In this document: one piece after another, positions 21,197 to 37,966 of the stretch
Layout: every line of letters starts with the position of its first letter
How positions within the stretch are numbered: the stretch's first letter is position 1
Assembly (NCBI GenBank): GCA_036556695.1
Contig: DATBIY010000013.1
Span: 18,946-82,945, forward strand
Reading direction: 5' to 3'
DNA from: Candidatus Limnocylindria bacterium
GTDB lineage: Bacteria; Chloroflexota; Limnocylindria; QHBO01
DNA: 64,000 nt
Made by a program: the position numbers and the translations under genes
Notes under the pieces: generated by a model
What the model was told of the DNA's origin: nothing
Databases searched by the model: none
Seen by the model: the letters and a program-made list of their open reading frames with translations, nothing else

Positions 21197-21208
21197 GCGG
21201 CTCACCGT

Positions 21209-21214
21209 CACAAT
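21209..21214 (+). promoter_or_regulatory. -10-like CACAAT, 6 nt upstream of GTG 21221 (leaderless geometry)
   Basis: CACAAT-ggcgcc-GTG. Confidence 0.35.
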
Positions 21215-21220
21215 GGCGCC

Positions 21221-21705: not shown

Positions 21706-22467
21706 TCAGCGCGGCAGCCGGAAGACGTAGATCCCGAAGCCCAGCTGGTCGCGGCCGCCGCCCAGGAAGCGATCCCTGCCCGCCCGCGCACGCTCCAGAA
21801 AGACCTCGCGCTGCGGGTCGGCGGGATGCTCATCCGCCCAGCGCTCGACGGTCGCCGCGTAGCGCCATTCGTAGCGGTCCCAGTCGCGCGTGGTCGCGGT
21901 CGCCGCCCACAGCGGGGTGAGCCCGAAGTGGATGGCCGCCTGCAGGTTCTGGGTGTGGGTGCCCATCTCGTCGCGGGCGACGCCCAGCAGGGCCATGTAC
22001 TCGTCGGTCGGATCGGTGCGCCAGCAGGCGTCGGCCACCATCATCAGCCCGCCTGGCACGACCAGGCCGTACAGCTGGCGGACGAGGGTGGCGAAGCTGT
22101 CGTGCTCCCAGCCAGGACCCAGCGCCATGACCAGGTCGAACGGCTCGTCGGCGCGAAACTCGAGCGCATCGCCCTCGAGCAACTCCAATGTCCCGTGCCG
22201 CAGCTCCATGGACGAGGCGCGGGCGAGCGCCACTGCGTAGGGTGAGATGTCCACCCCCACGCCGTGCGCGTCGTAGCGCTCCACCACGCGGCGCAGCGCC
22301 TCGGCCCTGCCGCACCCCAGGTCCAGCACGCGCGCGCCGGACGGCAGCCGCAGCTCGCCGATGGCCTCATTCAGCGTCGAGCCAGACAGCGGGTTCCAGA
22401 TGACCATCTCCCCGTGGGCGATGGCCGAGAAGCGAAAGCGCTGCTCCTCCTCGAGTGAGAGCGGCAT
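21706..22467 (-). CDS. class I SAM-dependent methyltransferase
   Basis: Motif I VLDLGCGRAE and post-I GVDIS. The ATG at 22467 shares one base with the uricase stop (TGATG). The upstream 33 codons of the ORF overlap uricase and were rejected. Confidence 0.75.
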   Translation of the reverse strand: MPLSLEEEQRFRFSAIAHGEMVIWNPLSGSTLNEAIGELRLPSGARVLDLGCGRAEALRRVVERYDAHGVGVDISPYAVALARASSMELRHGTLELLEGDALEFRADEPFDLVMALGPGWEHDSFATLVRQLYGLVVPGGLMMVADACWRTDPTDEYMALLGVARDEMGTHTQNLQAAIHFGLTPLWAATATTRDWDRYEWRYAATVERWADEHPADPQREVFLERARAGRDRFLGGGRDQLGFGIYVFRLPR

Positions 22468-23414
22468 CAGCGGCGCATCAGCAGGCCGATGCGGCCGAAC
22501 GGCGGCCGCGGATCGGCGTAGGTCTTGATCCGCTCGTCCTCCGCGCTGGTCGCACCGCTGTCCCACAGCCGGTTCGTGGCCTCGAAGCTCACCTCACCGA
22601 GCTGCGGCCAGCGCTCCAGCATGCGGCCGCCGATCTCATGGACCAGGTGCTGGATCGAGAGGCTGACGAACTGGTGGAAGACGGACGCCGCCAGGTCGGC
22701 CACCTGGTCGCCGTCCACGTAGCGCGCCGGATCGGCGCCCAGCGCATCGGCATCGTCGGTATAGCGCCAGCCGATGTCGGTCCAGATGTAGAGCGGCCGG
22801 TCGCGGCGCTCGGGGAGGGTGGTGTGCTCGTCGCGCGCGAAATCGGCGAAGGCGCTGCCGGTGATCTTGATGAGCTGGATCTCCTCCCGTCCGCTGGCGT
22901 GGCCGGTGATCAGCACGCCGCCCCCGCCATCGCGCTCCAGGTCCAGCCGCGCCGTCGAGCGGTCGTTGCGATCGCGCGCGAACAGCCGATCGGACGCGGC
23001 AAAGCCATCGCCGTCGTCGGCTGGCACCACGGCGGCGGGGAAGGGGAGCCATCGGCCGATCATGGTCAACCGCTCCATGTGCGGGTACGTCTCCAGAAAG
23101 CGGCTGCCGACGTGGTGCAGCCAGCCTTCAAGAGTCGCGGACTGGCAGTCCAGCGACGCGGCATGGATGAAGTTCTTCATCGTGTCGGTGGCCACCACCA
23201 GCCGGTTGTCCCCCCGGGTGTAGGCATCCAGGAAGACCTCGCCCCGCACCACCACCTCGATCTCGGCCGCCATCAGCGTGTTCTCGCGGCCCCCGAAGGG
23301 CGATTCGGGAATGGGCGTGATGCCGGTCAGTGGCGTGCCGTAGGTGCGGTAGACCTTGACGTCCGCCTTGCCGTAGTGGATCTCGTAGTCCATGGAACCC
23401 TCCGTGTCGCCCAT
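22467..23414 (-). CDS. uox: urate oxidase (cofactor-independent uricase)
   Basis: YGKADVKVYR, VVATDTMKNFIH and the two-T-fold domain layout. 315 aa. Confidence 0.9.
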   Translation of the reverse strand: MGDTEGSMDYEIHYGKADVKVYRTYGTPLTGITPIPESPFGGRENTLMAAEIEVVVRGEVFLDAYTRGDNRLVVATDTMKNFIHAASLDCQSATLEGWLHHVGSRFLETYPHMERLTMIGRWLPFPAAVVPADDGDGFAASDRLFARDRNDRSTARLDLERDGGGGVLITGHASGREEIQLIKITGSAFADFARDEHTTLPERRDRPLYIWTDIGWRYTDDADALGADPARYVDGDQVADLAASVFHQFVSLSIQHLVHEIGGRMLERWPQLGEVSFEATNRLWDSGATSAEDERIKTYADPRPPFGRIGLLMRR

Positions 23415-23420
23415 TCTCAG

Positions 23421-23440
23421 AGCTCGTTACAGCTCGTTGC
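23421..23440. repeat. 10-bp tandem duplication AGCTCGTT(A/G)C x2 across the uraD stop codon
   Basis: agctcgttac (23421-23430) + agctcgttgc (23431-23440). The TAA stop (23427-23429, minus strand) lies in the first copy, at the junction with the second. Confidence 0.8.
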
Positions 23441-24488
23441 CCAGGCCACGCAGGCGGCGCAGCCGATCACCAGCGATGTAGATCGCGTCGTCCACCGCGC
23501 GCCGCAGCTCCGCCTCGCGATCGTTGCGCAGCGCGCGCTCCAGCAGCGGCACAATCTCCGTCTTGGGGCGGCCGGCCACGAAGATCACGTACCGAAAACC
23601 GAAACGCTGCTCGTACAGCTCGTTGAGCATGGCCAGCTCCTCGTAGGCAAGCTGCGTGCGGCGTACCTCCTCGGCAGCCGCATCCTCGGCCTCTTCGGCG
23701 TCGTATCCCTGCTCGACGAACGACATGACCGATACCGTCGCCGGATCCGCACCGATCGGCGGGTGCGCCTGCACCAGCTCTACCTTCGCCTCCTCGTCCA
23801 GGCCGTGTGCCGCCTCGAAGGCGGCGGACAGCATGGCCTCCTCCGTCTCGAAGGGGCGCAGCTCCGCCAGGTGCTGCAGGAATGCCTCGCCGCCCTCGAA
23901 CAGCGGCGCCATCTCGTGCACGAATGTCTCGATCGGCAGGCGATCCAGGTCCTCCACCAGCGGGAAGCCGCGGGTCTGCAGTGGCTGCTGGAGATCGTCG
24001 CCAGCCAGCTCGAACTCGAGCAGGTCGCGGATGGGCAGTCCGTTGCCGGGGTTGCGCTCGGGGATCAGCGGCTTCAGCGCCCGATCGGCGGCCACCGCGT
24101 CATGGTGGATGCGTGCCAGCCGCAGGCCGCGCCGCAGGTAGAAATGGATGGCGTCCAGGTTGTCGTTGGTGGTCACCAGCCAGAGCCGATGGTGGCCACT
24201 GGCCGCGGCCACCTGCCGCACCGTTTCGAGCAGCGCGCTGCCAGCTCCGGCACCCCGCGGCTCGGCGAACAGCCCCACTACCTCCAGTCCCGAGCCGGGG
24301 GTCTCCTGCACCGCGGCCACGCCCGCCGGTGTGCCGTCCAGCTCGGCCACCAGGCCGTCGAGCTGCAGCGGGTCCAGCTTTTCGCCCAGGCGGGCGAGCT
24401 CGTGCGTGCCGCCCTGTGCGCCGGCGATCATCTCGCGCTCCCACTGGCGGTCGTCGGGCCGCAGATCGCGGACGCGGACCTCAGGCAC
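23427..24488 (-). CDS. uraD: fusion protein: N-terminal GNAT acetyltransferase domain + C-terminal OHCU decarboxylase
   Basis: The C-terminal ~170 aa carries OHCU decarboxylase signatures (HPPIG, SFVEQ, LNELYEQRFGFRYVIFVAGRPKTEIVPLLERALRND). The N-terminal ~165 aa has the GNAT motif A region (VVGLFAEPRGAGAGSALL). The frame is continuous. The start is uncertain: GTG 24488 (8-nt overlap with the upstream gene) or ATG 24575 (95-nt overlap). Confidence 0.8.
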   Translation of the reverse strand: MPEVRVRDLRPDDRQWEREMIAGAQGGTHELARLGEKLDPLQLDGLVAELDGTPAGVAAVQETPGSGLEVVGLFAEPRGAGAGSALLETVRQVAAASGHHRLWLVTTNDNLDAIHFYLRRGLRLARIHHDAVAADRALKPLIPERNPGNGLPIRDLLEFELAGDDLQQPLQTRGFPLVEDLDRLPIETFVHEMAPLFEGGEAFLQHLAELRPFETEEAMLSAAFEAAHGLDEEAKVELVQAHPPIGADPATVSVMSFVEQGYDAEEAEDAAAEEVRRTQLAYEELAMLNELYEQRFGFRYVIFVAGRPKTEIVPLLERALRNDREAELRRAVDDAIYIAGDRLRRLRGLGNEL

Positions 24489-24927
24489 GGGCGTAGCGGA
24501 ACTCGTCACCGGTTTCGCGCGGCTGAGCGGCCGTCTCGAACCAGGCGTACAGCTCGCCGGACGGCTGGAGCTCATAGACCATCCAGCGCTCCTCGCCGCG
24601 CTTCAGGAAGGTGACGCGGCGTTCATCGACCGCCACGAGGTCGAGGGTCACCGCCTCGTCCTTCTCCTCCCAGCCCTTCAGCCCCGGCGCGAAGTGCTTG
24701 ATGCGGAAGACAATGTGATCGCCCTCGGGCTCCATCGAGCACAGCTCATAGAAGCGCGGCTGGCCGTCGCGATGCCAGCGGAACATGCCCAGCATCATTC
24801 CGGCGTAGGGCTCGCTCCACCATTCCTCGATGCGGTCAGCGGCGTGCTCGCCGACCCAGCGGCCCGCCATCCAGGCCACCTGGTCCACGGTGGCGGCCAG
24901 CGGCTGCGTGGGGTGCATCGGTGCCAA
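24481..24927 (-). CDS. hypothetical protein, DUF6265-like by eye
   Basis: 148 aa (WMAGRWVGE...IEEWWSEP...MLGMFRW). Packed between uraH (2 nt gap) and GNAT::uraD. Start is TTG 24927 or ATG 24918. Confidence 0.6.
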   Translation of the reverse strand: MAPMHPTQPLAATVDQVAWMAGRWVGEHAADRIEEWWSEPYAGMMLGMFRWHRDGQPRFYELCSMEPEGDHIVFRIKHFAPGLKGWEEKDEAVTLDLVAVDERRVTFLKRGEERWMVYELQPSGELYAWFETAAQPRETGDEFRYARA

Positions 24928-24929
24928 CC

Positions 24930-25271
24930 CTAGCTGCCGCGGTACGTCGCCAGGCTGAACGGCGAGAGCAGCAGCGGCACGTGGTAGCCGCGCTCGGCGT
25001 CGTCGATGTGGAAGCCAATGGCCACGTTCTCGAAGAACTCGGCGTCTTCCTGCAGGTAGGCACCCACGTCGAAGACCAGCTGGTAGCTGCCGACCTCCAG
25101 CGGTGAGGTGAGCAGCGACCGGATGCGGCCGTCGTCGTCGGTCTCCATCTCGGCCAGCAGCTCGGGTTTGCCGTCGGGCTCGAGCCGGAAGAGCGCCACC
25201 GGCACGCCAATCGCCGGGTCGCCGGTTCCGAGGTCAAGGACGTGGGTGCTGATCGTCGGGGGTCCGACCAC
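24930..25271 (-). CDS. uraH: 5-hydroxyisourate hydrolase (transthyretin-like)
   Basis: ISTHVLD N-terminus, HVPLLLSPF, diagnostic C-terminal YRGS. GTG start with GGAGGA 6 nt upstream. Confidence 0.92.
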
Positions 25272-25272
25272 T

Positions 25273-25281
25273 TGCTATCCT
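25273..25281 (+). promoter_or_regulatory. extended -10-like TGCTATCCT, 6 nt upstream of ATG 25288 (leaderless geometry)
   Basis: TGCTATCCT-ccgcgc-ATG. It overlaps the SD of the divergent uraH on the other strand. Confidence 0.4.
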
Positions 25282-25287
25282 CCGCGC

Positions 25288-25710
25288 ATGGGTGACCTAC
25301 GCATCAGCGTCGGCGATCTGCACTTTACCGCCCGCTGGCATCCGGACGCCCCTGCCACGCGGCGGGCGCTGGAGGCATGGCTGCCGATCGACTCGAAGCT
25401 GATCCACTGCCGCTGGAGCGGCGAGTCGACCTGGATCCCGTTCGGCGACTCCCGTCCGACGGTGGGCTACGAGAACGCGACGTCGCATCCGGCGCCAGGC
25501 GACCTGCTCATCTACGTCGGCGACATCTCCGAGTGCGAGATCCTGTTCCCGTACGGCGCCTGCTCCTTCTCGTCGAAGGTGGGACAGCTGGCCGGGAATC
25601 ACTTCGCCACGCTGGAGCCGGACGATGGGTGGCGCGACAGGCTGCGCGAGGTCGGCCGCCGGGTGCTGTGGGAGGGCGCCCAGCCGATCCGCATCGAGCC
25701 AACGTCGTGA
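25288..25710 (+). CDS. DUF3830 family (cyclophilin-like fold) protein
   Basis: 140 aa (FTARW...[17 protein letters not shown]...[15 protein letters not shown]...[14 protein letters not shown]...[11 protein letters not shown]), matching my recollection of DUF3830 sequences. Confidence 0.7.
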
Positions 25711-26009
25711 TCCCGCTCGCGCTGATCGCGTTGGTGGTCGTGGCCTTCGTGCTGGCCGGCAACGGCATCGTCCCGCTGTGGGTGGCCATCGCGGCCATCC
25801 TGGCGGGGCTGCTGGTCGCTGCCTGGCAACTGGACCGCAAGGCGGGTCCGGGCGGCCACAGAACCATGCCCAAGCGCAAGTACGCCGCCCTGCTGGGCAT
25901 CGGCGCTGCGGAGCCGAGCAACCACCCGGTCATCGTCATCGACCGCGGCGACCGCGCCGGCGAGCCGCCCGGGGTGAACCGCGGCGACGATTCGCAGCCC
26001 CGCCGCTAG
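25707..26009 (+). CDS. small two-TM membrane protein, unknown function
   Basis: GTG 25707 overlaps the DUF3830 stop (GTGA). Two hydrophobic helices followed by a charged tail. 100 aa. Confidence 0.45.
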
Positions 26010-26024
26010 CCGGCCTGCGCGGCC

Positions 26025-27419
26025 ATGAGCGATCTGGTGATCCGCGGCGGCACGGTGGTCACCGCCCAGCGCTCGTTCGGCGCCGACGTGGCGATCACTC
26101 ACGGTCGCATCACGGCCGTGGGACCGGATCTCGCGACGCAGCACCCGAACGCGGAAAAGCTGGACGCCAGCGGCCTATTGGTGCTGCCGGGCTGCGTGGA
26201 CGTGCATACCCACACCCGCCTGCCGATCGACGAGGAGCCGGATCGCTTCTTCCAGGACTCGGTGGCCGCAGCCTTCGGCGGCACGACCACCTTCCTGGCC
26301 TTCAACAACCCCGGGACCGGGATCAGCCAGCAGGGGAGCGCCTCGCTGCTGGCCGGGCTGGACGAGTTCAGGCAGCGGACCGAGGGGGAGGCGGCGGTCG
26401 ATTTCGGCCTGGCGGCGGTGATCACCGGGCAGCAGGACGGCGCGCTGGACGAGCTGCCGGAGCTGATCCGGCGCGGCGTGCCGACCGTCAAGGCCTTCAT
26501 GGTCTACGAGTTCCGCCTGCCCGATGAGCAGCTCTTTGCGGCCTTGCAGGTCATGAGCCGCCACGGCGGGATGCTGCAGGTCCACTGCGAGAACGCCACG
26601 ATCATCGACGCGCTGGTGTCCGGGGCGGTGGACGCCGGCCACACCACGTGCCGTCACCACGCGGCCTGCCGCCCGACCTACGCCGAGGCGGAGGCCACGC
26701 ACCGGGCCATCGCGCTGGCGCGCGCCGCGGACGCATCGGTCTATGTCGTCCACCTTTCGTGCGCCGATGCACTGGCCGAGGTGGTCGCCGCCAAGGCGCG
26801 CGGCTGGCCGGTGTACGCCGAGACTTGCCCCCACTACCTGACCCGCACCGAGGCGGCCTACGAGGCCGATGACGAGGCCGAGGTCATCAAGTCGGTCATC
26901 TCGCCCCCGCTGCGTGCCGAGAGCGACCGCCAGGCCCTGTGGCTGGGTCTGGCGCGCGGCGGCCTGGACCTCGTGGCCACCGACCACGTGCCGGACCGCC
27001 TGGCGGTCGAGAAGACGGTGCCGGCCCCGCCCTTCCCGCAGATCAGCAATGGGGCACCTGGCATCGAGACCCTGCTGAGCGTGGTCTATTCGGCGGGCGT
27101 GGGGGCAGGGCATCTCTCGCTGGAGCGCATGGTCGATGTGCTGGCCACCACGCCGGCGCGCCTCTTCGGGATGTCGAGCAAGGGCGCGATCGAGGTGGGA
27201 CGCGACGCCGACGTGGTGCTGTTCGACACCGCCGCGCGGCGCACCCTGCGCCAGGCTGACCTGCATCACACCAGCGATTTCACGCCGTACGAGGGCATGG
27301 GTCTGCGCGGCGCGGTGCACTCCGTGTTCCTGCGCGGTGAGCCAGTCATCAAGGATGGGGCGTTCGTTGGCCGGCGCGGGGCGGGACGCTTCGTGGAGCG
27401 CGCGCTCGAGGAGGCCTGA
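26025..27419 (+). CDS. dihydropyrimidinase/hydantoinase-type cyclic amidohydrolase (allantoinase candidate by context)
   Basis: GGTVV, PGCVDVHTH, VKAFMVY (carboxylated-Lys region), LQVHCEN, VATDH. 464 aa. Confidence 0.85.
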   Translation: MSDLVIRGGTVVTAQRSFGADVAITHGRITAVGPDLATQHPNAEKLDASGLLVLPGCVDVHTHTRLPIDEEPDRFFQDSVAAAFGGTTTFLAFNNPGTGISQQGSASLLAGLDEFRQRTEGEAAVDFGLAAVITGQQDGALDELPELIRRGVPTVKAFMVYEFRLPDEQLFAALQVMSRHGGMLQVHCENATIIDALVSGAVDAGHTTCRHHAACRPTYAEAEATHRAIALARAADASVYVVHLSCADALAEVVAAKARGWPVYAETCPHYLTRTEAAYEADDEAEVIKSVISPPLRAESDRQALWLGLARGGLDLVATDHVPDRLAVEKTVPAPPFPQISNGAPGIETLLSVVYSAGVGAGHLSLERMVDVLATTPARLFGMSSKGAIEVGRDADVVLFDTAARRTLRQADLHHTSDFTPYEGMGLRGAVHSVFLRGEPVIKDGAFVGRRGAGRFVERALEEA

Positions 27420-27441
27420 GCGCGCGCTCGAGGAGGCCTGA
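27398..27441. repeat. exact 22-bp tandem duplication GCGCGCGCTCGAGGAGGCCTGA x2, including the stop codon
   Basis: 27398-27419 and 27420-27441 are identical. The first copy encodes the last residues (RALEEA*) of the amidohydrolase. Confidence 0.9.
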
Positions 27442-27461
27442 GCGCTCGCCATCGGTCCGGT

Positions 27462-27470
27462 TGCTAGGAT
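27462..27470 (+). promoter_or_regulatory. extended -10 TGCTAGGAT, 6 nt upstream of ATG 27477 (leaderless geometry)
   Basis: TGCTAGGAT-gcccgc-ATG. Confidence 0.45.
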
Positions 27471-27476
27471 GCCCGC

Positions 27477-28811
27477 ATGGCCGCGCTGATCGCCGTCGCC
27501 GTTGCCTTGAGCACGACCCTCAGCGTGCCCAGCGGCACGCCGCTGCCCGCATCGCCGGCGACCACCACGCACCTGGCGACCACGTACGTGCTGAACGCCT
27601 CGCTCGACGTCAGCGCGGGGCGGCTGCGAGTCGGCGAGCGGGTGACCATCACCAACCGGGCGTCATACCCCATCGACCATGTCAACCTCTCCGTGCTGCC
27701 ACGCGCGTTCGGGTACTTCAGGTTCGCCGGGCAGGTTCGCGTCGACGGGGAGGAGGCGGACATCAGCTGGACCAGCGGCACCAACCTGCGCGTCGCGCTG
27801 GGGCGCTGGCTGCAGCCCGGTGTGCAGGTGGCCATCCGCATCCCGTTTCGCCTGCGCGTCGGGTCCAGCGGCGGCGCCTTCACGGCACGCACCAGCCGCG
27901 ACCGCGGGGTGCTGAGCCTGGGCGAGTGGTTCCCGATCATCTCGCGCAAGCACGACAGCTACGCGGTGGGCGATCCACAGGTCACGCGCACCGCTGACTT
28001 GATCACGCTCAACCTGACCACCGACGTGCGCTTGCTGCGCCAGGCGGTTGCCTGCGCGGGCCTGCAGCAGGCACCGGCCGTTCGCGGGCGCCATTGGACC
28101 TGCGTGGCCCGGAACGTTCGCGACTTCTCGGTGGTGGTGAATCCCCGGTTCCACGTCATGACCCGCACCACCGACGGCGTCACCGTTCGCGTCTACACGG
28201 AGACGGTCGATGGCTCGACCACGATGAGGAAGGCGAGGTTCGCGCTGCGCTCGCTGAACGACCTCTACGGTCGCTATCCGTGGACCGACCTGGTGCTGGC
28301 CGAGGTCGGCGCCGATGGCGGCTTCAGCATGGAATATCCGCGCACCATCCACCTGACGCGCACGAAGGTGACCGATACCTACGTGCTCTACCACGAGGTC
28401 GCGCACCAGTGGTTCTACGCGCAGCTGGGCAACGACCAGATGCGCGTGCCGTGGCTGGACGAGGCCTTCGCCGACTTCACCGCACGCTGGCTGATGGGCA
28501 TCGGCCGCAGCCAGTGCTCGACCCGCGACGTGGACAGCTCGGTCTTCGCCTGGCCGGCCGGCAAGACGAGCGGCGGGGACTGGCTGAGCTGCGACGGCTA
28601 CTTCCACGCGGTGTTCTACAAGGGAAGCGAATTCTTGACCAGGGTCCGCCAGTCGATGGGCACGACGCGGTTCTTCGCAAGCCTGCGCACCTTCATCGCC
28701 GACAACCGCTATGGCATGACCACGACGCGTGGGCTACTGGACTTCCTGCAGTCGCGCAGCCAGACGAACCTCCTGCCGATCTATCGGCGCTACCTGCACG
28801 CTTACGACTGA
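27477..28811 (+). CDS. M1-family (gluzincin) metallopeptidase with N-terminal signal/anchor
   Basis: GFSMEYP (GxMEN-like), HEVAH followed 18 residues later by E (WLDEAFADF). Hydrophobic N-terminus MAALIAVAVAL. Confidence 0.8.
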   Translation: MAALIAVAVALSTTLSVPSGTPLPASPATTTHLATTYVLNASLDVSAGRLRVGERVTITNRASYPIDHVNLSVLPRAFGYFRFAGQVRVDGEEADISWTSGTNLRVALGRWLQPGVQVAIRIPFRLRVGSSGGAFTARTSRDRGVLSLGEWFPIISRKHDSYAVGDPQVTRTADLITLNLTTDVRLLRQAVACAGLQQAPAVRGRHWTCVARNVRDFSVVVNPRFHVMTRTTDGVTVRVYTETVDGSTTMRKARFALRSLNDLYGRYPWTDLVLAEVGADGGFSMEYPRTIHLTRTKVTDTYVLYHEVAHQWFYAQLGNDQMRVPWLDEAFADFTARWLMGIGRSQCSTRDVDSSVFAWPAGKTSGGDWLSCDGYFHAVFYKGSEFLTRVRQSMGTTRFFASLRTFIADNRYGMTTTRGLLDFLQSRSQTNLLPIYRRYLHAYD

Positions 28812-28936
28812 TACGGTGCCAGCCGGTGCGCCGACCACGGCGGCGGCAACAGGCAACGTCGCCCTCCTGGTGACCCGCGTGGGCCTATTGGGCAGTTGCG
28901 TTTGGGACCGGTACTGTCGCTAGCCTGTAGAGCGCC

Positions 28937-29443
28937 GTGTCAGATGCAGAACAGCGCGACCCGTACGCGATCCTGCAGGTGCACACCAACGCCGTGCCCG
29001 AGGTCATCGACGCCGCGTATCGAGCACTGGCGCTTATCCATCATCCGGATCGCAGTGGCGAGCCGACTGCGGACGCGATCATGGCGGATCTCAACTGGGC
29101 CTATGCCGTCTTGCGCGAGCCCGATCTGCGCGCCTCGTATGACAGCAGTCAGGTGGCAATCGAGGTCGAGCCGCCCGCCGCCGACGTCACGAACGCCACC
29201 CTGCGCGAGCGGGTCGCCGTAGCCGCGGACGCGGCGGTGGAGCGCGACACCTCGAATCCGGCGAACACCGTAATCGACTTCGGCCGCTTTGCCGGCATGA
29301 CGCTTCGGCAGATCGCGCGCACTGACCCGACCTACCTGGAATGGCTGCGCCGTCACTCGTCGGGGATTCGGTACCGCGCGCAGATCGACGCCGTGCTGAG
29401 CGCGATGGCAGGCAGTCGCTCGGCTCAGCCCAGCAGCGGGTAG
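28937..29443 (+). CDS. J-domain protein with DUF3820-like C-terminal region
   Basis: DPYAILQV ... [12 protein letters not shown] (HPD motif). C-terminal [23 protein letters not shown] resembles DUF3820. GTG start. Confidence 0.72.
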
Positions 29444-31005
29444 GCGTCCAGCGTCAGGAACTCGGCGAACTCGTCGGAAAGGACGAGTGCGTCGAGCAGG
29501 GCGGAGGCATCGGCCCAGCGGTGGTCCGGCGCCGACGACTGCAGCCGGCTGAGCTCATCGTCGCGAATCACGCCGTACAGCTCGGGAGTCATCGGCCTTC
29601 CGTCCGCCATTGTCGCGCGGTGGATCCGCCACTGCCACAGCTGCGAGCGGCTGATCTCGGCGGTGGCCGCGTCCTCCATCAGGTTGTTGATGGCCGCCGC
29701 CCCGTTGCCGGCCAGCCAGGAGGCCAGGTACTGGAGCGCCACCGACACGTTGGTGCGCACGCCCGCCTCGGTGATGGCGCCGCCCGGCACGCTCACGTCC
29801 AGCAGTTGAGCGGCCGAGGGCGCGACGTCCGGGGAGCGGTCCTTCTGGTTGGGACGCTCGCCCAGCGCCACGTCGAAGATCTCGCCGGCCACCGGCACCA
29901 GGTCAGGGTGCGCCACCCAGGTGCCGTCCGACCCGTCGCCGGCCTCGCGCTGCTTGTCCTCGCGCACTGCGGCCAGCGCGCGCTCGGTAACCTCCGGCTC
30001 GCGGCGGTTGGGGATGAAGGCGCTCATGCCCCCGATGGCGTGCGCCTCGCGGCGGTGGCAGGTCGCGACCAGGAGCTGCTGGTAGGCGCGCATGAAGGGC
30101 ACCGCCATGGTGACCTGGGCACGGTCCGGCAGGACGCGATCGGGCCGGCTGCGCAGCTTCTTGATGAAGCTGAAGATGTAGTCCCAGCGCCCCGCGTTCA
30201 GGCCGGCGGCGTGCTCACGCAGCTCGTAGAGGATCTCCTCCATCTCGAAGGCCGCCAGAATGGTCTCGATCAACACGGTGGCGCGGATGGTGCCGCGCGG
30301 CACGTCCAGCGCCTCCTGGGCGGCCAGGAAGACGTCGTTCCAGAGCTGCGCCTCGAGGTGCGACTCCAGCTTCGGCAGGTAGAAGTACGGGCCCGAGGCG
30401 CGGGCCAACTGCTCGCGGGCGTTGTGGAAGAAGGTCAGCCCGAAATCGAAGAGGCTGGCCGAGATGGGGGAGCCGTCCACCAGCACGTGCGCCTCGTCCA
30501 GGTGCCAGCCGCGTGGCCGCACCACCAGCGTGGCCAGCTGTCCGGACCCGAGCTCGTAGGTCTTCTCCTCGGTGCGATGCGTGAGCGTGCGCCGCACGGC
30601 GTGCTGCATCGCCCATTGACCGGTGACCGCGTTCTGCCAGGTGGGGGAGAGCGCGTCCTCGAAATCGGCCATGAACACGCGCGCGCCGGAGTTCAACGCG
30701 TTGATCATCATCTTCGGCTCGGCGGGGCCGGTGATCTCGACCCGGCGATCGTCCAGGTCCGGCGGGGCGGGCGCCACCCGCCACTCGGGGTCGTCGCGGA
30801 CCGGATGCGTATTCGGCAGGAAGTCCGGCAGCTCGCCGGCGTCGAAGCGCGCCTGGCGTTCGCGCCGCTCCCCGAGCAACCGCAGCCTCCGCTGGTTGAA
30901 GGACCGATGCAGCTGCGCGACGAAGCCGAGCGCCTCGGGGGTCAGGACCTCGTCGGCATGTTCGGCGGATGCGGTGACGTCGACGCCGGGCGCGGTGACC
31001 GACAT
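29425..31005 (-). CDS. aceB: malate synthase A
   Basis: 526 aa ([58 protein letters not shown]). The 3' end overlaps the J-domain gene by 19 nt (convergent). Confidence 0.92.
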
Positions 31006-31009
31006 GCGC

Positions 31010-31480
31010 TCAGTACCCGAACCGCATGAGGATCATGCAGGTGAAGATGACGAAGAACAGCGCCAAGTCGATTCGCGTCACGACGTTCAGCCGTGCGACC
31101 GCGGCACCGAAGTCGGGAGCGTCCTTGACCGCCGTGTATGCGGGGCCGATGTTGATCGCGCCGTTCACGAACAGGCCGATGGTCGCCACCAGGGCCAGCA
31201 GCCACGTCAGGCCGTAGGCCGTGGTGAAGACGTACTCGAACGAGTTGATGGGACCCAGCAGCGTTCCGCGGACGATGCCCAGCAGCAGGACCAGGATGCC
31301 CACCACCGGAAACACGCGCTGCCCCGTGGCCGACAGTCGGCCGTACATCTCGCGCAGCGTTCCCTCCGGCATCGTCCGCAGCGGCGGCGCGATGAGGAAG
31401 TAGGCCGACAACGCGTATCCGAACCACAGGATGCCGAGCAGGACGTGGACCCATTGGACGGCGAACTGCAGCCAGTTCAC
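31010..31480 (-). CDS. four-TM membrane protein, CopD/HemJ/PuuD-N-terminal-like
   Basis: GTG start with AGGAG 9 nt upstream. TM1 is [15 protein letters not shown] (conserved-looking His/Trp). The stop is 4 nt before the malate synthase ATG. Confidence 0.62.
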
Positions 31481-31514
31481 GTGGGTGGACTCCTGAGTGC
31501 AGATTGGTCCGCCG

Positions 31515-31523
31515 ATTGTGGCA
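31515..31523 (-). promoter_or_regulatory. extended -10 TGCCACAAT (minus strand) upstream of the membrane-protein/malate synthase pair
   Basis: Minus strand reads TGCCACAATCGGCGG...AGGAGtccacccacGTG. It lies in the 60-nt gap after the YdeI-like gene. Confidence 0.4.
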
Positions 31524-31540
31524 GACCCTACCAGCCGATC

Positions 31541-32149
31541 CTAGCGCTCGCCTCGCTCGACGATGAAGGCCTTCGGCCGCGTGCCGGCGCGCAACGTGGC
31601 CAGCAGCTCGGCGAAGCGACGCTCCCGGGTCTCGGGCCGCTTGGCGGAGGCCACCCAGTAGGACGCGGTGCGACGGAATGACGGCTGTTCTGCCGTCCAG
31701 CGGGCTGCGGCGGCGGAATCGGCCTCCAGGCGGGCGAGCATCTCCGGCTCCAGCTCCAGCTGCGGCCGTTCGTACGAGTAGCTGGCGTCCCTGCGGTGGT
31801 CACGCTCCTCGAAGACTCGCAGCCCAGCGGGGTGCATCCGTCCGGCGGCCTTCAGCTCGGCGACCTTGGCGAGGTTGATGGCGCTCCAATTGCTGCCACT
31901 GCGCCGGGGTGTGAAGCGGGTGGCCGTCACCTCGTCGTCGATGCGGAAGGTGATGCCGTCGATCCAGCCGTGGCACAGCGCCTCCTCGACGGCCTGCGGG
32001 TAGGTCATCGCGACCTTGCCGGCGCCCTTCTTGTAGAAGCCCACGAACAGGGCCGTCCCGGTCGCGTGGTGCTCCTGCAGCCAATCACGGAAGGCAGCCT
32101 GGTCGGTGAAGATGCGGACCTCGTCTCGCGTTGGCCTGCTGATGGGCAC
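31541..32149 (-). CDS. YdeI/OmpD-associated family protein
   Basis: 202 aa (FRDWLQEHH...GFYKKG...ALCHGWIDG...RFTPRR..SNWS..N). The start is 3 nt after the XDH FAD-subunit stop. Confidence 0.72.
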   Translation of the reverse strand: MPISRPTRDEVRIFTDQAAFRDWLQEHHATGTALFVGFYKKGAGKVAMTYPQAVEEALCHGWIDGITFRIDDEVTATRFTPRRSGSNWSAINLAKVAELKAAGRMHPAGLRVFEERDHRRDASYSYERPQLELEPEMLARLEADSAAAARWTAEQPSFRRTASYWVASAKRPETRERRFAELLATLRAGTRPKAFIVERGER

Positions 32150-32152
32150 GGG

Positions 32153-33010
32153 CTACCAGTCGCCCTCGTCACGGATGAGCCGATGGAGGACGCGCCCGGC
32201 CACCGCGCGACGATAGTCGGCGGTCGATCGCACGTCGTCGATGGGGGTCAGCTCCTCCGCCAGGGCCGCCACCGCCGCGTCGGCCACCTCCGGCGACGGA
32301 TCGTGGCCTTCGAGCGTTGCCTCGGTGCGGAGAGCGCGCACGGGAGTCGCGGCCATTGAACCCAGCGCCAGGCGAACGTTGCGCCACGCCGCGCTGCCAT
32401 CGCTCTGCTCCCAAGCCAGGGCCATCACCACCTTGGAGATGGCCTGCGCGCAGCGCGTGCCCACTTTGCGGAAGCGCACCTGGCGAGCGTCGACCAGGGG
32501 GAAGCGAATGCGCACGATCAGCTCGTCGGGTGCCAGGGCGGTGCGCCGATAGGCCGGCCAGAACTCACTGGCCGGCACGGTTCGCTCGCCGCGCGGCCCG
32601 CCCAGCACCAGCTCCGCGTCCGTGGCCAGCAGGATGGGCAGCGTGTCGCCGGCGGGCGAAGCGTTCGCCGCGTTGCCGCCAAGCGTGCCGCGATTCTGGA
32701 TCTGCGCGGCGCCGATCGTGGCTGCGGCATCCGCCAGCGCGGGCAGGTGCGTCTGGACCTCCGGCGCGCGCCGAATCTGGGTGTACGTGGTCAGGGCGCC
32801 GATCACCAGCGCGCCGTCCTGCAGGCTGATGCCCCGCAGCTCATCGAGGCCCCAGATGTCGATGACGCGCTCCGGCGGCTCGCCGATCTCGCCGGTGATC
32901 TGCACCAGCAGGTCAGTGCCGCCGGCCACGGGGCGGTGCGGCGCCTCGGCCAGGGCGGCAAAGGCCTCGTCCAGGGTGCGCGGGCTGACGACCGGCGGCT
33001 CGACGGGCAT
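32153..33010 (-). CDS. xanthine dehydrogenase family FAD-binding subunit (CoxM/XdhB-like)
   Basis: FAD_binding_5 pattern (AGGTDLLV, IQNRGTLGGNAANASPAGD) plus a CO-dehydrogenase flavoprotein C-terminal domain. Confidence 0.85.
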   Translation of the reverse strand: MPVEPPVVSPRTLDEAFAALAEAPHRPVAGGTDLLVQITGEIGEPPERVIDIWGLDELRGISLQDGALVIGALTTYTQIRRAPEVQTHLPALADAAATIGAAQIQNRGTLGGNAANASPAGDTLPILLATDAELVLGGPRGERTVPASEFWPAYRRTALAPDELIVRIRFPLVDARQVRFRKVGTRCAQAISKVVMALAWEQSDGSAAWRNVRLALGSMAATPVRALRTEATLEGHDPSPEVADAAVAALAEELTPIDDVRSTADYRRAVAGRVLHRLIRDEGDW

Positions 33011-33014
33011 CGGC

Positions 33015-33490
<476 letters not shown>

Positions 33491-33494
<4 letters not shown>

Positions 33495-35875
33495 GGCTTG
33501 AGGTCCTGCGGCGGATCAGTGGGAGCTCGGAAGGGCATCTCGTCGCCGCCGGCGGGCAGATCCTCGACCGGCGGGGTCCGCGGCTCGGGCGCCTCGAGCG
33601 AGACGCCGGGAGCGGGCGGCATCGGTCCATTGGTCATGGCGGCCAGGATGCGCTCCGGCGTGGCGGGCAGGTCGTGGATCCAGGCACCGGTGGCGTCGTG
33701 GATGGCCGCCACCACCGCCGGCGCCCCGACGTCCATGGGCAGCTCGCCCACGCCCTTGGCGCCGTGTGGCGCGCCGGAGTACGGCTTCTCGACCAAGATG
33801 CTGCGAATCGTCGGCGCATCAAGCGCGGTGGGGATGAGGTAGGTGGCCAGGCGGTCGTTCTGGTAGCGGCCGTCCAGCAGCTTCATCTCCTCGATGGTGG
33901 CGTAGCCGATGGCCTGCAGCGAGCCGCCCTCCACCTGTCCCTCGGCCAGCACCGGGTGGATGACATGACCGATATCGTCGGCGGCCACGAAGTCGCGCAC
34001 CGCGACCTCACAGGTGTCCAGGTCGACCTCCACGCGGGCCACGGCGGCCGCCCAGCCGAACGCCGGATAGGCGTCGCCGGTGTAGTTCCTGTCGTCGAAC
34101 GGCACGCCCGGGTACGGCGTGAACTGCTCGTCGACGCGGCGTGGCCGGGCCGCGCGGTACGAGTCGGCGAACGGGCGGCCCGTCTCGTCCTCCACCAGCG
34201 CCCTCAGGTTCCTTGCCGCGCGGATGAGCAGGCCGCCGACCACCATGGCCGTGCGGCTGGCGACCGTGGGGCCGGAGTCCGGGACGATGGAGGTGTCCTG
34301 TGGCGCGATCTCGACCTCGTCGTACTCGACGCCCAGCGCATCGGCCACCAGCTGCGGGAAGATCGTCTTGGTGCCCTGGCCCATCTCGGTCGAGGCGGTC
34401 AGGATGCGGATGCGGTGGTCGTCGGTGAGCTCGACGCTCGCGACCGACGCCAGTTTCACCTCGCCCGAGCCGGTGAAGCCGGCCCCGTGCCAGGCCAGCG
34501 CCAGCCCCACGCCGGACGCGATGCGCGCGCCGGATCCGCGCCGCTGACGCGCCTCCCGGGTTCGCTGGCGATGGGTCTCGAACGCCGATGCCTCCGCCGC
34601 CGCCTCCAGCACCGCCTCGCCGCCGACGCTCTCGCGCAGCACCTGGCCGGTGGGTGTCACATCGCCCTCTCGATACACCCAGCGACGCCGGAGCTCGAGC
34701 GGCGACTCGCCGAGCGCATCGGCAATGCGGTTGACCTGCATCTCGGCAGCGAACTCGGTCTGCGGCGCTCCGAAGCCGCGGAAGGCGCCGTTGGGCGGCG
34801 TGTTGGTGGCCATGGCGCGCCCCACGATGCGCACGTTCTCGCAGCGGTACGGGCCGCCGGCGTGCAGCGTTCCGCGGCTGAGCACCACCGGCGTCAGGGT
34901 GCAGTACGCGCCGCCGTCCATTATGACCTCGATCTCCTGCGCCACCAGGTCGCCGTCATGCGTCACGCCGGAGCGGTAGCGGATCACTGCCGGGTGGCGC
35001 TTGGTGGTGGCGCTGATGTCCTCGTGGCGGTCGTAGATCATGCGTACCGGCTTCTCGCACTTCCTGGCGAGCAGCGCGGCATGCAGCGCGATCATGGAGG
35101 GATATTCCTCCTTGCCGCCGAAGCCGCCGCCGGTCTCTGCCTGGACCACGACCGCCAGCTCGTCGCCCATGTCCAGCGCCCGCTTCATGGCCTTGTGGAT
35201 GTAGTACGGGCACTGCAGCGAGCCATGGACCGTCATGCCACCGTCTTCGCGTGGCACGGCGATCATCGCCTGGTTCTCGATGTAGAGCTGCTCCTGGTGC
35301 CCGACCCGGTACGTGCCCTCGATCACCCGGTCGGCCTTCGCCATGGCGGCCGCCGCGTCGCCGCGCTCGACCACGTAGCGGGCGAACTGCCGGTCGCTCT
35401 CCAGGGGGTCGAAGACAGCCGACAGGCGCTCGGTGCGCAGCCGGACGTGCTTCCGCGCCTCACGCACGGTGGAGCGATCCGCCGCCGCGACCAGCGCCAC
35501 CGGCTCGGCCTGATGGCGAATCTCGCCGCCAACGGGCACCAGCACCGGCTGGTCGTCGTCGATGAGGCTCACGATGTTCTCGCCGGGGATGTCGTCGGCG
35601 GTGACGACCACCACGCGGCTCCAGTCGAACGCGTCGTCCAGCTCGATGCCCAGCAGCCGCGCATGTGGCTCGGTGGAGCGGATGGTGGAGCCGTACCAGG
35701 CGCCGGGGAACACCAGGTCATCGGCGTACTTCGCCAGCCCGGTGAGCTTCTCCGGCCCCTCGCGGCGTGGGGGCGCGGTCCGGATGCGGCCACGCGCGGG
35801 CGCATCGGCCGGAATGACCACCGCCGAGGAGGCAGTCGGTGGGGGCATCCGGGTCATGCGAGTCCGGGGCTCCAT
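33491..35875 (-). CDS. xanthine dehydrogenase family molybdopterin-binding large subunit
   Basis: 794 aa (GGGFGGKE, AFRGFGAPQ as in XDH-type enzymes). 4-nt overlap with the small subunit gene. Confidence 0.9.
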
Positions 35876-35897
35876 CGGCGCATGCTAGCGCGACGGC

Positions 35898-36302
35898 TTA
35901 CTGGCGCGCCTCCGAGATTTCGAGCAGGTGCCCATCCGGGTCGCGGAAGAAGGCGCGCACCTCCCACTCGGAGCTGAGCGGCGGGGCGAGGAAGGTTGCG
36001 CCGCGAGCCCGCAGCTCCTGGTACGCGGCCTGGCAGTCGGCAACGCGCATGGTGAACGCATGGTCCACACGGCTGGGATCGGTGGCCGGCGCAAAAGTGA
36101 CGTCCGGCTTGTCCTCGGTCGGCGGCCCGCCCGTCACCAGCAGGATCCAGGCTCCGGCCAGGCGCAGCACGCACGACGTGCCGCCGTATTCGCGGTACAC
36201 CTCGGCGCCAACCACGTCGCGCCAGAAGTCGCGCGCCCGATCGACGTCGGTCACGACCAGGATGGTGGTCAGCTCGACCTCGGGACCGGGGAAGCCGCCC
36301 AT
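35898..36302 (-). CDS. VOC (glyoxalase fold) family protein
   Basis: ATG 36302 with GGAGGA 7 nt upstream. 134 aa (FWRDVVGAEV ... FFRDPDGHLLEI). The upstream 24 codons of the ORF were rejected. Confidence 0.7.
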   Translation of the reverse strand: MGGFPGPEVELTTILVVTDVDRARDFWRDVVGAEVYREYGGTSCVLRLAGAWILLVTGGPPTEDKPDVTFAPATDPSRVDHAFTMRVADCQAAYQELRARGATFLAPPLSSEWEVRAFFRDPDGHLLEISEARQ

Positions 36303-36315
36303 GCCGCAGTCCTCC

Positions 36316-37947
36316 TCAGTCCCGAGCGTGCCGCATCGCGCGGCCCGGTGTCGCACCGGTGTGCGAGCCGCCATCCACCACCAGCGTGCCGTTCACCAGC
36401 ACGTGCTCGATGCCATCCGGGAATTGTCGCGGCTCGTCATACGTGGCGTTGGCGCGCACGCGCTGCGCGTCGAAGACGACCACGTCCGCTGCGTATCCGT
36501 CGCGCAGCAGCCCGCGGCTCCTGAGGCCAAGCCGCGCGGCCGGCGCGCCGGTCATGCGGTGCACGGCTTCCTCCAGGCTGAGCAGCGCCTCCTCGCGCAC
36601 GAACTGCCCCAGGATCCGCGGGAAGGAGCCGTAGGTGCGCGGCGACGGCTTCTCGCCCAGGAACGTCGAGTCGGTGCCGATCATGGCCGAGGGGTGCTGC
36701 AGGAAGCGGCGCAGTCCGTCGGTGTGCGGCCCGCTGGTGACCTGCGCCACCCGCAGGTCCTCGGACAGCAGCAGGTCGCAGATCACGTCGACCGCGTCAC
36801 GGCCGGTGTCATCCATCACGTCCGCCAGGCTTCGCGACTCCCAAGGAACGTTCTCCGGTCGCGTGAAGGCGCCCAGGCGCACGTCCGCCCAACCTGCCGC
36901 GCCGGCGTAGGCCGCCCCGCGGGCGGCCAGCTCCTGGCGAATCCGGTCACGCATTCCGGCGTCCGCCAGGCGTTCTTTCAGCGGCGCGGGGCCCCCGGCC
37001 TGGACCCACTGCGGCAGCTGGATGAGCAGCCGGGTCGACGCCCACTCGTAGGGGTAGGTGTCGAAGCTGACGTCCTGCCCGGCGGCCTGCGCATCGTCGA
37101 CCAGCGCCAGCAGCTGCTCCGGCGTCCCCGGATAGGTGAGGCGGTGATAGAAGTGGGTGATGTGCGCCGGCCCTTCGCCACGGCGCCCGATCTCGACCGC
37201 CTCGCGAAACGGGTCCATGAAGCGATCGCCAAGCGGGTAGCGGACGTGGGTGTGGTAGATGCCGCCGTGGCGCGCCGCCTCCGCCGTCAGCGCGGCCAGC
37301 TCATCGGTCGAGGCATACGAGCCCGGCGGGTAGTCCAGGCCGCTGGAGATGCCGAAGGCGCCTTCCTCCATGGCCTCGCGCAGCATGGCGCGCATGCTGG
37401 CCAGCGCCCGCTCATCGGCCGGTGCATCGTCCCAGCCGATGGCGCCGATGCGCAGCGCGCTGTTCCCGACCAGCACCCCGACGTTGATGGCCTGCCCGCG
37501 GTCGTATCGGTCCAGGTAGGAAGCGACCGTGTCCCAGTCGTAGTCAAGCGGCGGGTCGCCGTCCAGGCCGGCGTTCAGGCGGACGAAGGCCTCCAGGTCG
37601 TCGCGATGGGCGAAGGGCGCGTAGCCGTTGCCGTCGACGCCGATGATCTCCGTGGTGACACCCTGGCGCACCTTCGGCTCATGCCGCGGATCGGCCAGGA
37701 TCACCAGCCCGCCGTGCGAGTGCAGGTCGATGAACCCCGGCGCCACCACCATGCCCGTCGCGTCAAGGACGCGTCGCGCCTCCGGCTGCCACCCAGCCGG
37801 TCCCAGCTGCAGGCGACCGTCCCGCACGCCAACTGTTCCCGGCGCAGTGGCTGCGCCACTGCCATCCACCAGGCTGCCACCGCTGATGAGCAGCTCGACC
37901 CGCTGAGGGAGAGCCTTGTCGTGCTCGTCGCGACCGGCCATCTCCAC
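36316..37947 (-). CDS. N-acyl-D-amino-acid deacylase (COG3653-type) family amidohydrolase
   Basis: LLISGGSLVDGSG, PGFIDLHSHG, KVRQGVTTEIIG. The start is GTG 37947 (TATACT-N6-GTG) or ATG 37941. The remaining 190 codons of ORF 36316..38514 are antisense to the mocA-like gene and were rejected. Confidence 0.8.
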   Translation of the reverse strand: MEMAGRDEHDKALPQRVELLISGGSLVDGSGAATAPGTVGVRDGRLQLGPAGWQPEARRVLDATGMVVAPGFIDLHSHGGLVILADPRHEPKVRQGVTTEIIGVDGNGYAPFAHRDDLEAFVRLNAGLDGDPPLDYDWDTVASYLDRYDRGQAINVGVLVGNSALRIGAIGWDDAPADERALASMRAMLREAMEEGAFGISSGLDYPPGSYASTDELAALTAEAARHGGIYHTHVRYPLGDRFMDPFREAVEIGRRGEGPAHITHFYHRLTYPGTPEQLLALVDDAQAAGQDVSFDTYPYEWASTRLLIQLPQWVQAGGPAPLKERLADAGMRDRIRQELAARGAAYAGAAGWADVRLGAFTRPENVPWESRSLADVMDDTGRDAVDVICDLLLSEDLRVAQVTSGPHTDGLRRFLQHPSAMIGTDSTFLGEKPSPRTYGSFPRILGQFVREEALLSLEEAVHRMTGAPAARLGLRSRGLLRDGYAADVVVFDAQRVRANATYDEPRQFPDGIEHVLVNGTLVVDGGSHTGATPGRAMRHARD

Positions 37948-37953
37948 GGGCGC

Positions 37954-37961
37954 AGTATATG
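37954..37961. promoter_or_regulatory. overlapping back-to-back -10 boxes in a 19-25 bp divergent gap
   Basis: Minus strand: TATACT-gcgccc-GTG (amidohydrolase). Plus strand: (G)TATAT(G)-N5/6-ATG 37967 (mocA-like). Confidence 0.4.
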
Positions 37962-37966
37962 GACCG

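Follow-up and report, generated by a model that had tools for sequence, protein, structure and literature searches.

We report a uricolytic island at positions 21706-37947 of a 64-kb stretch of a Candidatus Limnocylindria genome (hereafter the window; all searches described as made in the window cover these 64 kb). The island is real and conserved, its lower half is non-standard, and as a whole it is a variant of a known pathway. Judging from the sequence, we give an even chance to the reading that the island would form a catabolic route from purine to malate, with a canonical upper half and a non-canonical lower half running via a hydantoinase-type cyclic amidohydrolase, a D-aminoacylase-type amidohydrolase of COG3653 and the small cyclophilin-like protein DUF3830. 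Among its new points, the best supported are the tie of DUF3830 to the pathway as a whole and the apparent displacement of the allantoinase AllB by the hydantoinase-type enzyme. Many soil bacteria recover the four nitrogen atoms of each purine by ureide catabolism; to our knowledge, the enzymology of this process is regarded as essentially complete, with known alternative enzymes for several steps.

The proposed lower half has four steps, all inferred from comparative genomics. The amidohydrolase of the D-hydantoinase clade would open allantoin to allantoate in the place of AllB, and the COG3653 enzyme, which is the candidate within the cluster, would decarbamoylate allantoate. DUF3830, with its conserved polar pocket, would convert ureidoglycine and/or ureidoglycolate to glyoxylate, acting as an analogue of ureidoglycine aminohydrolase (UGlyAH) or as a urea-releasing C-N lyase; alternatively, it would split allantoate itself in the manner of an allantoicase. 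Malate synthase A would then join glyoxylate with acetyl-CoA.

The upper half is canonical, as judged from family models and active-site residues: xanthine dehydrogenase (XDH) would oxidise hypoxanthine and xanthine to urate, which uricase, 5-hydroxyisourate (HIU) hydrolase and 2-oxo-4-hydroxy-4-carboxy-5-ureidoimidazoline (OHCU) decarboxylase would convert to (S)-allantoin. The cofactor-independent urate oxidase uox (22467-23414, minus strand) scores 194 against TIGR03383 (cutoff 168), and the HIU hydrolase uraH with its C-terminal YRGS (24930-25271, minus) scores 110 against TIGR02962 (cutoff 87). OHCU decarboxylase (uraD; 23427-24488, minus) is fused to a GNAT domain (PF00583 and PF09349, E 4e-29); the fusion is limited to the closest relatives, and elsewhere the decarboxylase stands alone. 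Pfam and NCBIfam recognise three XDH subunits, all on the minus strand: FAD (32153-33010), 2Fe-2S (33015-33494) and Mo (33491-35875). The NCBIfam equivalog scores for XDH are all under their cutoffs; the best PDB match of the Mo subunit is XdhB of R. capsulatus, and the purine-specific XdhB residues E232, R310, F344, F459, T460 and E730 are all kept in the alignment. Malate synthase A (29425-31005, minus) scores 736 against TIGR01344 (cutoff 594). The original prediction, in which the island covers the conversion of purine to allantoin and malate synthase serves as a glyoxylate sink, agrees with these results. In five related loci (family fam31; for example, L061, L063, L069 and L074) a true PuuD is found in the place of uricase.

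Among the 80 loci of the survey described below, isocitrate lyase stands beside malate synthase in Gemmatimonadales only, and 33 of the 51 hydantoinase-type loci have malate synthase without isocitrate lyase. Since isocitrate lyase is missing from the window and from the hydantoinase-type loci, another source of glyoxylate is implied.

It had been predicted that the window contains no canonical enzyme leading from allantoate to glyoxylate, and this held in tblastn, phmmer and Pfam scans. Tblastn of E. coli AllA, AllC, AllD, AllE, Gcl, Hyi, GlxR and GlxK against the six frames of the window (threshold E<=1) gave nothing real, with short chance-level matches at E 0.1-0.8 discounted (E 0.71 for AllA); the sole real match was that of AllB to the cyclic amidohydrolase (30% identity). 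In phmmer at E<=10, AllE, AllA, AllD and AllC were all without a match in the window, and no allantoicase, ureidoglycolate lyase, M20 or PuuE-type (polysaccharide-deacetylase) domain was detected by Pfam in its coding-like open reading frames (ORFs). UGlyAH (AllE), AllA and AllD were not found in any of 164 related loci either, carriers of both AllB and AllC included; besides the window, the comparison covered 80 genome loci, the long contigs with AllC or COG3653, and 80 metagenome loci.

The recurrent unknown neighbours were clustered and scanned with Pfam for a hidden allantoicase, lyase or cupin, and none was found apart from Cupin_5; these neighbours are MurJ, META, PadR, TPR/cyclase regulators, Ku/LigD, permeases, ABC transporters, DUF6498 and PAP2. 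The sole cupin (Cupin_5, DUF985) occurs in Gemmatimonadales only, where in five loci (L060, L065, L066, L073 and L076) its gene is convergent with DUF3830-AllB-AllC. In the same five loci, genes for isocitrate lyase and an aldehyde dehydrogenase come after that for malate synthase. DUF985 may be a further ureide-pathway component in that phylum, as yet uncharacterised.

DUF3830 and its genomic neighbours

The DUF3830 gene (25288-25710, plus strand) encodes a cyclophilin-like protein of 140 amino acids, which scores 84.5 against PF12903 (threshold 26). Each GTDB species was represented by a single genome in a pattern scan built on an alignment of seven DUF3830 sequences, which gave more than 596 loci. 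The survey set is the 80 most similar of them (55-82% identity), with genes counted within 10 kb; it comes mostly from Limnocylindria and other Chloroflexota, and also from Gemmatimonadales, Solirubrobacteraceae, other Actinomycetota and Dormibacterota. HIU hydrolase is present in 76 of the 80 loci, cyclic amidohydrolase in 71, uricase in 49, malate synthase in 41 and the XDH subunits in 34-39. Ureide genes lie within 3 kb of DUF3830 in all 49 related loci whose flanks measure 3 kb or more on either side. Since the gene set of the island is found again around DUF3830 in dozens of species-level genomes, the clustering is not due to chance. DUF3830 had been listed as one unknown among several; it proves instead to be the key conserved element.

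The start of the amidohydrolase gene usually lies 9-30 bp past the stop of DUF3830. The amidohydrolase next to DUF3830 is of the hydantoinase type in about 54 loci, all from Chloroflexota, and of the AllB type in about 20 (Gemmatimonadales, Actinomycetota, Dormibacterota and some Limnocylindria). All seven AllB-type proteins scanned with NCBIfam pass TIGR03178 (scores of 424-541, cutoff 358), and in the AllB-type loci an M20 enzyme that passes the NCBI allantoate amidohydrolase models precedes or follows. A more distant branch has DUF3830 directly after AllC and beside a PuuE-type allantoinase unrelated to AllB. The DUF3830-AllC pair with this allantoinase was seen on eight high-GC metagenome contigs (L109, L121, L134, L136, L137, L157, L170 and L172), on which the PuuE-type label was assigned by eye from sequence motifs.

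As DUF3830 pairs with the AllB, hydantoinase and PuuE types and with AllC, it tracks a segment of the pathway rather than one partner. With UGlyAH and AllA missing from the 164 loci, DUF3830 is therefore the best candidate for the last step or steps to glyoxylate, that is, for the conversion of ureidoglycine or ureidoglycolate. Two narrower roles were considered. That of a dedicated allantoinase subunit is ruled out by the pairing with three types of allantoinase and sometimes with AllC alone. That of an allantoin racemase is unlikely: the cluster makes (S)-allantoin, which has the D-hydantoin configuration, and racemisation would be needless.

The AlphaFold2 model of DUF3830 has a pLDDT of 95. 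Its best Foldseek match is 3KOP, a DUF3830 protein of Arthrobacter, which superposes on the model (TM about 0.8, E 7.5e-9); by sequence alone it can scarcely be picked up (E 0.67). The next matches are the Pictet-Spenglerases KslB and McbB (TM 0.65-0.78, E about 5e-6); identity across the fold matches is 16-21%, and KslB and McbB are twice as long as DUF3830. Both bind an alpha-amino acid, creating a C=N bond to an aldehyde or keto acid. By analogy, this chemistry in reverse resembles the way in which ureidoglycine or ureidoglycolate would give off glyoxylate, and the likeness of the model to these enzymes shows that a cyclophilin-like fold can host C-N chemistry of amino acids and carbonyls. 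The polar residues S44, E46, E62, T65, S81, E82, E84, Y89, S96, N104, H105 and Q132 are conserved in more than 95% of the proteins. Literature searches on DUF3830, PF12903, 3KOP and cyclophilin-like proteins with allantoinase returned nothing relevant.

Ring opening and the allantoate step

The cyclic amidohydrolase (26025-27419, plus; 464 amino acids) belongs to the D-hydantoinase clade, with a score of 428 against TIGR02033 (cutoff 393). It scores 289 against the AllB model TIGR03178, below the cutoff of 358, and is not an AllB equivalog. Its PDB matches reach about E-100 for 3SFW and 1YNY, and E-51 to E-56 for allantoinases. The metal ligands H58, H60, K150, H183, H239 and D315 (1YNY numbering) are intact. 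Three loops of the substrate gate are remodelled in a way that is conserved in the clade and unlike both D-hydantoinase and AllB: loop 1 is shorter by two residues, its hydrophobic pair not being conserved in the clade, loop 2 is longer by six residues (NNPGTG), and loop 3 is shortened. F152 and Y155 are kept; the hydrophobic pocket of characterised D-hydantoinases is formed by M63, F65, F152, Y155 and F159.

In the genome, this enzyme fills the AllB slot right after DUF3830, with the same spacing and the same neighbours, and no second allantoinase is present in the hydantoinase-type loci. Because its position beside DUF3830 is that of AllB in other lineages, we believe that it most likely displaced AllB as the allantoinase. 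In spatial configuration, (S)-allantoin corresponds to a D-5-substituted hydantoin (according to the Cahn-Ingold-Prelog rules), and the D-hydantoinase scaffold is therefore stereochemically suitable. The original prediction of a hydantoinase-type ring opener is retained in its assignment to the D-hydantoinase clade; what changes is the role, which is best read as that of an allantoinase in the place of AllB.

The D-aminoacylase-type amidohydrolase (COG3653, Amidohydro_3; 36316-37947, minus; 541-543 amino acids) heads the XDH operon. It matches the PDB structures 9G5M, 1M7J (E 3e-68) and 3GIP (E 6e-66) over its full length, the range being E-66 to E-70. Its HxH motif and both His ligands are invariant in 120 homologs, and its Asp ligand aligns with that of the solved D-aminoacylases. 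The Cys ligand of the GNCG motif (presumably Cys96 in 1M7J) is replaced by Asp (GVDG) in the protein of the window and in all 120 close homologs.

The distribution of this gene is complementary to that of AllC. An AllC-type M20 enzyme occurs in about 20 loci, none of them of the hydantoinase type; COG3653 occurs in at least 13 loci (10-13 of the 80 surveyed), all of the hydantoinase type and none with AllC. The COG3653 count is a lower bound, as a layout like that of the window puts the gene 11-12.6 kb from DUF3830, past the fetched flank. Three of three long Limnocylindria contigs with AllC homologs have the order uox-uraD-uraH / DUF3830-AllB-AllC-amidohydrolase-XDH, and three of three long contigs with COG3653 homologs (L090-L092) have the island of the window, adjoining ruvB. 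The occurrence of COG3653 only where AllC is missing fits a role as allantoate amidohydrolase, for which it is a plausible but weak candidate.

The protein of the VOC/glyoxalase fold (35898-36374, minus; PF00903) has an uncertain start, with an overlap of 59 nt with the upstream gene. A VOC gene adjoins COG3653 in L090 and L092, L091 has none, and an accessory role is possible for a gene that abuts COG3653 in two of three close contigs. In the survey, the VOC of the window is found in none or one of the 80 loci; VOC genes from other families do occur in the vicinity, at varying positions. A route to glyoxylate by the deacylase together with the VOC protein, which had been proposed earlier, finds support only in its first part: COG3653 recurs in hydantoinase-type loci, and the VOC is confined to the closest relatives. 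Likewise, the neighbourhood comparison suggested for the unknown genes ties DUF3830 and COG3653 to the uricolysis genes and shows no conservation of the VOC.

Known systems and competing readings

The E. coli all regulon and the B. subtilis puc genes follow the same logic from urate through allantoin and allantoate to glyoxylate, with homologous uricase, HIU hydrolase and OHCU decarboxylase. As compared with the canonical pathway, relatives of the cluster carry bona fide AllB and AllC, whereas the window is without an AllB equivalog, AllC, UGlyAH, AllA and AllD. Instead of the glyoxylate carboligase route of E. coli (no Gcl, Hyi, GlxR or GlxK by tblastn), the window has malate synthase. The E. 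coli all-regulon stretch that we examined does not contain DUF3830, whereas in the window DUF3830 is coupled to the predicted allantoinase. The Streptomyces coelicolor allantoin cluster (allB, alc and the malate synthase aceB1), on which our literature search found nothing, links a dedicated malate synthase, as the glyoxylate sink, to allantoin genes as here; its canonical AllB and allantoicase are absent here.

The hydantoinase process likewise combines a ring opener of the D-hydantoinase clade with an amidohydrolase of the D-amino-acid deacylase family. The substrates are alike as well, allantoin being a hydantoin substituted at position 5 and allantoate an N-carbamoyl amino acid. Unlike in that process, the two genes of the window lie in separate operons of a uricolysis island, the gate loops are remodelled, and Asp stands for Cys; no hydantoin racemase or permease was found.

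A precedent for non-canonical replacement in a uricolytic cluster is Rubrobacter xylanophilus, a high-GC soil bacterium with no canonical allantoate-to-glyoxylate enzyme in its genome and with a ureidoglycine carbamoyltransferase in the cluster (Barba et al. 2013, PMC4016543). Its route involves a pseudo-ATCase (aspartate carbamoyltransferase) and carbamate kinase beside a canonical allantoinase (PMC4016543). The candidate proteins of the window differ: neither a carbamoyltransferase domain (Pfam) nor carbamate kinase (YbcF) was found in it.

Through the survey, DUF3830, a domain without an assigned function, is linked with the breakdown of allantoin in several soil phyla that are abundant and poorly cultivated; neither UGlyAH nor ureidoglycolate lyase ever occurs in the clusters concerned. 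Should DUF3830 be the missing enzyme, this domain would gain a function and the pathway a further case of non-orthologous displacement; in many genomes, the current labels "dihydropyrimidinase", "D-aminoacylase" and "DUF3830 family protein" could be put right, and inferences on nitrogen cycling based on metagenomes with them.

A number of observations weigh against the proposed route from purine to malate. The cyclic amidohydrolase still passes the NCBI dihydropyrimidinase model. COG3653 always heads the XDH operon, and in relatives it lies beside adenosine- or guanine-deaminase-like genes; a purine base as its substrate would suit this position equally well. A D-type deacylase is expected to yield the ureidoglycine enantiomer opposite to that formed by AllC, and the same DUF3830, with identical conserved residues, occurs in clusters of the AllC and COG3653 types. 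The division between AllB/AllC and hydantoinase/COG3653 coincides with two clades and probably goes back to a single evolutionary event, so that the complementarity is statistically weak. AllC, UGlyAH, AllA or allantoicase could be encoded elsewhere in the genome, beyond the 64 kb.

The weightiest evidence against the role proposed for DUF3830 comes from the family itself. In a distant branch of DUF3830, 17 of 25 well-flanked loci are without ureide genes and the conserved residues are identical; the chemistry of the family may be broader than ureide catabolism. Residues separating the ureide-associated proteins from the others were sought by alignment, and none was found. The distant branch includes archaeal-looking metagenome contigs with 35-45% GC (L093-L100), on which DUF3830 lies between alaS and glyS; these loci have no ureide genes within 8 kb and the same conserved residues.

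The main remaining alternative, which we consider possible though well short of probable, is an ordinary pathway split across the genome. Canonical AllC with UGlyAH/AllA, or allantoicase, would be encoded elsewhere, DUF3830 and COG3653 would be accessory or unrelated, and the island would yield allantoin, or perhaps allantoate through a promiscuous hydantoinase. Our view is limited to 64 kb of the genome, most of the unknowns of the original prediction are not conserved, and some DUF3830 homologs have no ureide context, all of which favours the split. Yet AllC in this class is seen inside DUF3830-AllB clusters only (about 20 loci and the three long contigs) and never close to any of the hydantoinase-type clusters, roughly 54 in number; even loci that carry AllB and AllC are without UGlyAH and AllA; and DUF3830 is translationally coupled to the allantoinase. 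The opposite extreme is a wholly non-orthologous lower pathway, in which the hydantoinase would be the allantoinase, the COG3653 enzyme with its Asp ligand the allantoate amidohydrolase and DUF3830 the glyoxylate-releasing enzyme, with DUF3830 also replacing UGlyAH/AllA wherever Gemmatimonadota, Actinomycetota, Dormibacterota and further, unassigned soil lineages of high GC carry clusters of the AllB/AllC or PuuE type. We regard a replacement of this extent as rather unlikely.

It is improbable, in our opinion, that the hydantoinase and DUF3830 act on another cyclic ureide (dihydropyrimidines, 5-hydroxyhydantoin or the hydantoins of oxidised purines), with uricolysis stopping at allantoin and malate synthase serving general C2 metabolism. 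The match to the dihydropyrimidinase model, the closeness to D-hydantoinase structures and the DUF3830 homologs lacking any ureide context speak for such a substrate. Against it, the window and the hydantoinase-type loci yielded neither dihydropyrimidine dehydrogenase nor beta-ureidopropionase, the enzyme occupies the exact AllB slot, its gate loops are unlike those of D-hydantoinases, and malate synthase without isocitrate lyase is kept in most hydantoinase-type loci. We find it quite improbable that COG3653 and the adjacent VOC protein turn allantoate or ureidoglycine into glyoxylate, DUF3830 being incidental. The recurrence of COG3653 in hydantoinase-type clusters, complementary to AllC, and the adjacency of the VOC in the window, L090 and L092 agree with this route; however, the VOC of the window is without a counterpart in the 80 genome loci, L091 has none, and DUF3830 is linked to the pathway far more tightly and widely than the VOC. 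Finally, DUF3830 might be a ligand-binding, regulatory or maturation factor rather than an enzyme, with ureidoglycine and ureidoglycolate decaying spontaneously to glyoxylate. Both compounds are chemically unstable, and the protein is small and has no recognised catalytic motif; nonetheless, we hold a non-enzymatic role to be very improbable, considering that three allantoinase types and AllC as partners argue against a dedicated protein partner, that many Ser, Glu, His, Asn and Tyr residues are invariant, and that true enzymes are found among the fold relatives.

Layout of the island and its remaining genes

The window has a G+C content of about 70%. Genes were called by third-position GC, and the called ORFs were then scanned with Pfam and NCBIfam. 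The range 21706-37947 holds three packed operons, whose genes mostly overlap or are closely spaced; this gene map bears out the three tightly packed transcription units proposed initially, and the genes named at that time were all identified where they had been placed, MocA aside. Unit A (minus strand) comprises uraH, DUF6265, the GNAT-OHCU decarboxylase fusion, uox and the S-adenosylmethionine (SAM)-dependent methyltransferase. Unit B (plus) comprises DUF3830, a 100-residue membrane protein, the cyclic amidohydrolase and an M1-peptidase-like protein; the DnaJ/ExoX-C protein (28937-29443, plus) follows after a gap of 125 nt, and it may be counted in this unit or left out of it. Unit C (minus) comprises COG3653, VOC, the Mo, FeS and FAD subunits of XDH, the OmdA/YdeI protein, a 156-residue membrane protein and malate synthase A. 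The M1-peptidase-like, DnaJ/ExoX-C, OmdA/YdeI and 156-residue proteins lie within the range and had not been mentioned in the original prediction.

The gene for the MocA-like molybdenum-cofactor cytidylyltransferase (37916-38575; PF12804; TIGR03310 score of 113, below the cutoff) had been assigned to the XDH unit. The gene is present; however, it lies on the plus strand, divergent from the XDH operon, with only its first 32 nt inside the range. Its position is the same in L090 and L092.

Only 16 bp separate the start codons of the divergent genes uraH and DUF3830 (about 14-30 bp in relatives, with about 15 bp typical of the surveyed loci). The interval 25271-25288 contains a GGAGGA Shine-Dalgarno sequence for uraH and none evident for DUF3830. 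Either the promoters extend into the adjoining coding regions or DUF3830 is transcribed without a leader; it must be one or the other. The co-translation of DUF3830 with the 100-residue transmembrane protein, noted earlier, is supported by the GTG start of the latter, which overlaps the stop of DUF3830 (GTGA).

Most of the other genes of the island are restricted to narrow lineages. The SAM-dependent methyltransferase, the last gene of the uraH operon (21706-22467, minus; Pfam Methyltransf_25/31), the DUF6265 protein (24481-24918, minus; PF19780, E 4e-33) and the M1-peptidase-domain protein (27477-28811, plus; PF01433, E 2e-11; PDB 3CIA, E 2.5e-5) are each found in about 2 of the 80 loci, the M1-like protein also in L090. 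Considered as enzymes for the missing steps, these three were rejected for lack of conservation. The same applies to the two small membrane proteins. The protein of 100 residues (25707-26009, plus), with two predicted membrane helices and no match to a Pfam or NCBIfam family, has a comparable ORF in the nearest relatives only (L013, L017, L021, L090 and L092); the protein of 156 residues (31010-31480, minus), which resembles CopD and the N-terminal part of the membrane urate oxidase PuuD at sub-threshold scores, occurs in none of the 80 loci and is absent from L090 and L092. The OmdA/YdeI-family protein (31541-32149, minus; PF13376), located between XDH and malate synthase, is found in 7 of the 80 loci and in L090 and L092. 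From this distribution, we take the VOC, M1-like, DUF6265 and methyltransferase proteins, the GNAT domain and both small membrane proteins to be passengers or accessories of restricted lineages, unlikely to act as core enzymes.

The flanking housekeeping genes (RNase Y, YmdB and MutS2) fit a Chloroflexota bacterium, and close DUF3830 homologs are annotated from Candidatus Limnocylindria metagenome-assembled genomes. A DUF3830 protein identical to that of the window, with the same gene order, is found on JGI metagenome contigs. One contig of the survey (L072, DATLEG010000295.1) is labelled Candidatus Saccharimonadales; its GC content of 71% and its uricolysis cluster, which resembles those of Chloroflexota, make mis-binning probable.

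The 17-kb island interrupts the ruv genes, with ruvC, ruvA and the gene for a CoA-binding protein (20121-21667) on one side and ruvB (38575-39615) on the other. The same placement is seen in L090-L092 and in about eight related genomes (L010, L015, L021, L032, L037, L038, L046 and L048). Elsewhere in Limnocylindria, Ku/LigD and an S8 peptidase are the neighbours of the cluster; it has therefore moved within the class. Two coding-like ORFs upstream of ruvC (18396-19118, minus, and 19172-20059, plus) are without a Pfam match. Downstream of the island, a xanthine/uracil permease (40840-42174) follows ruvB and a methyltransferase gene, and an inosine-uridine-preferring nucleoside hydrolase is encoded farther outside, at 56599-58044.

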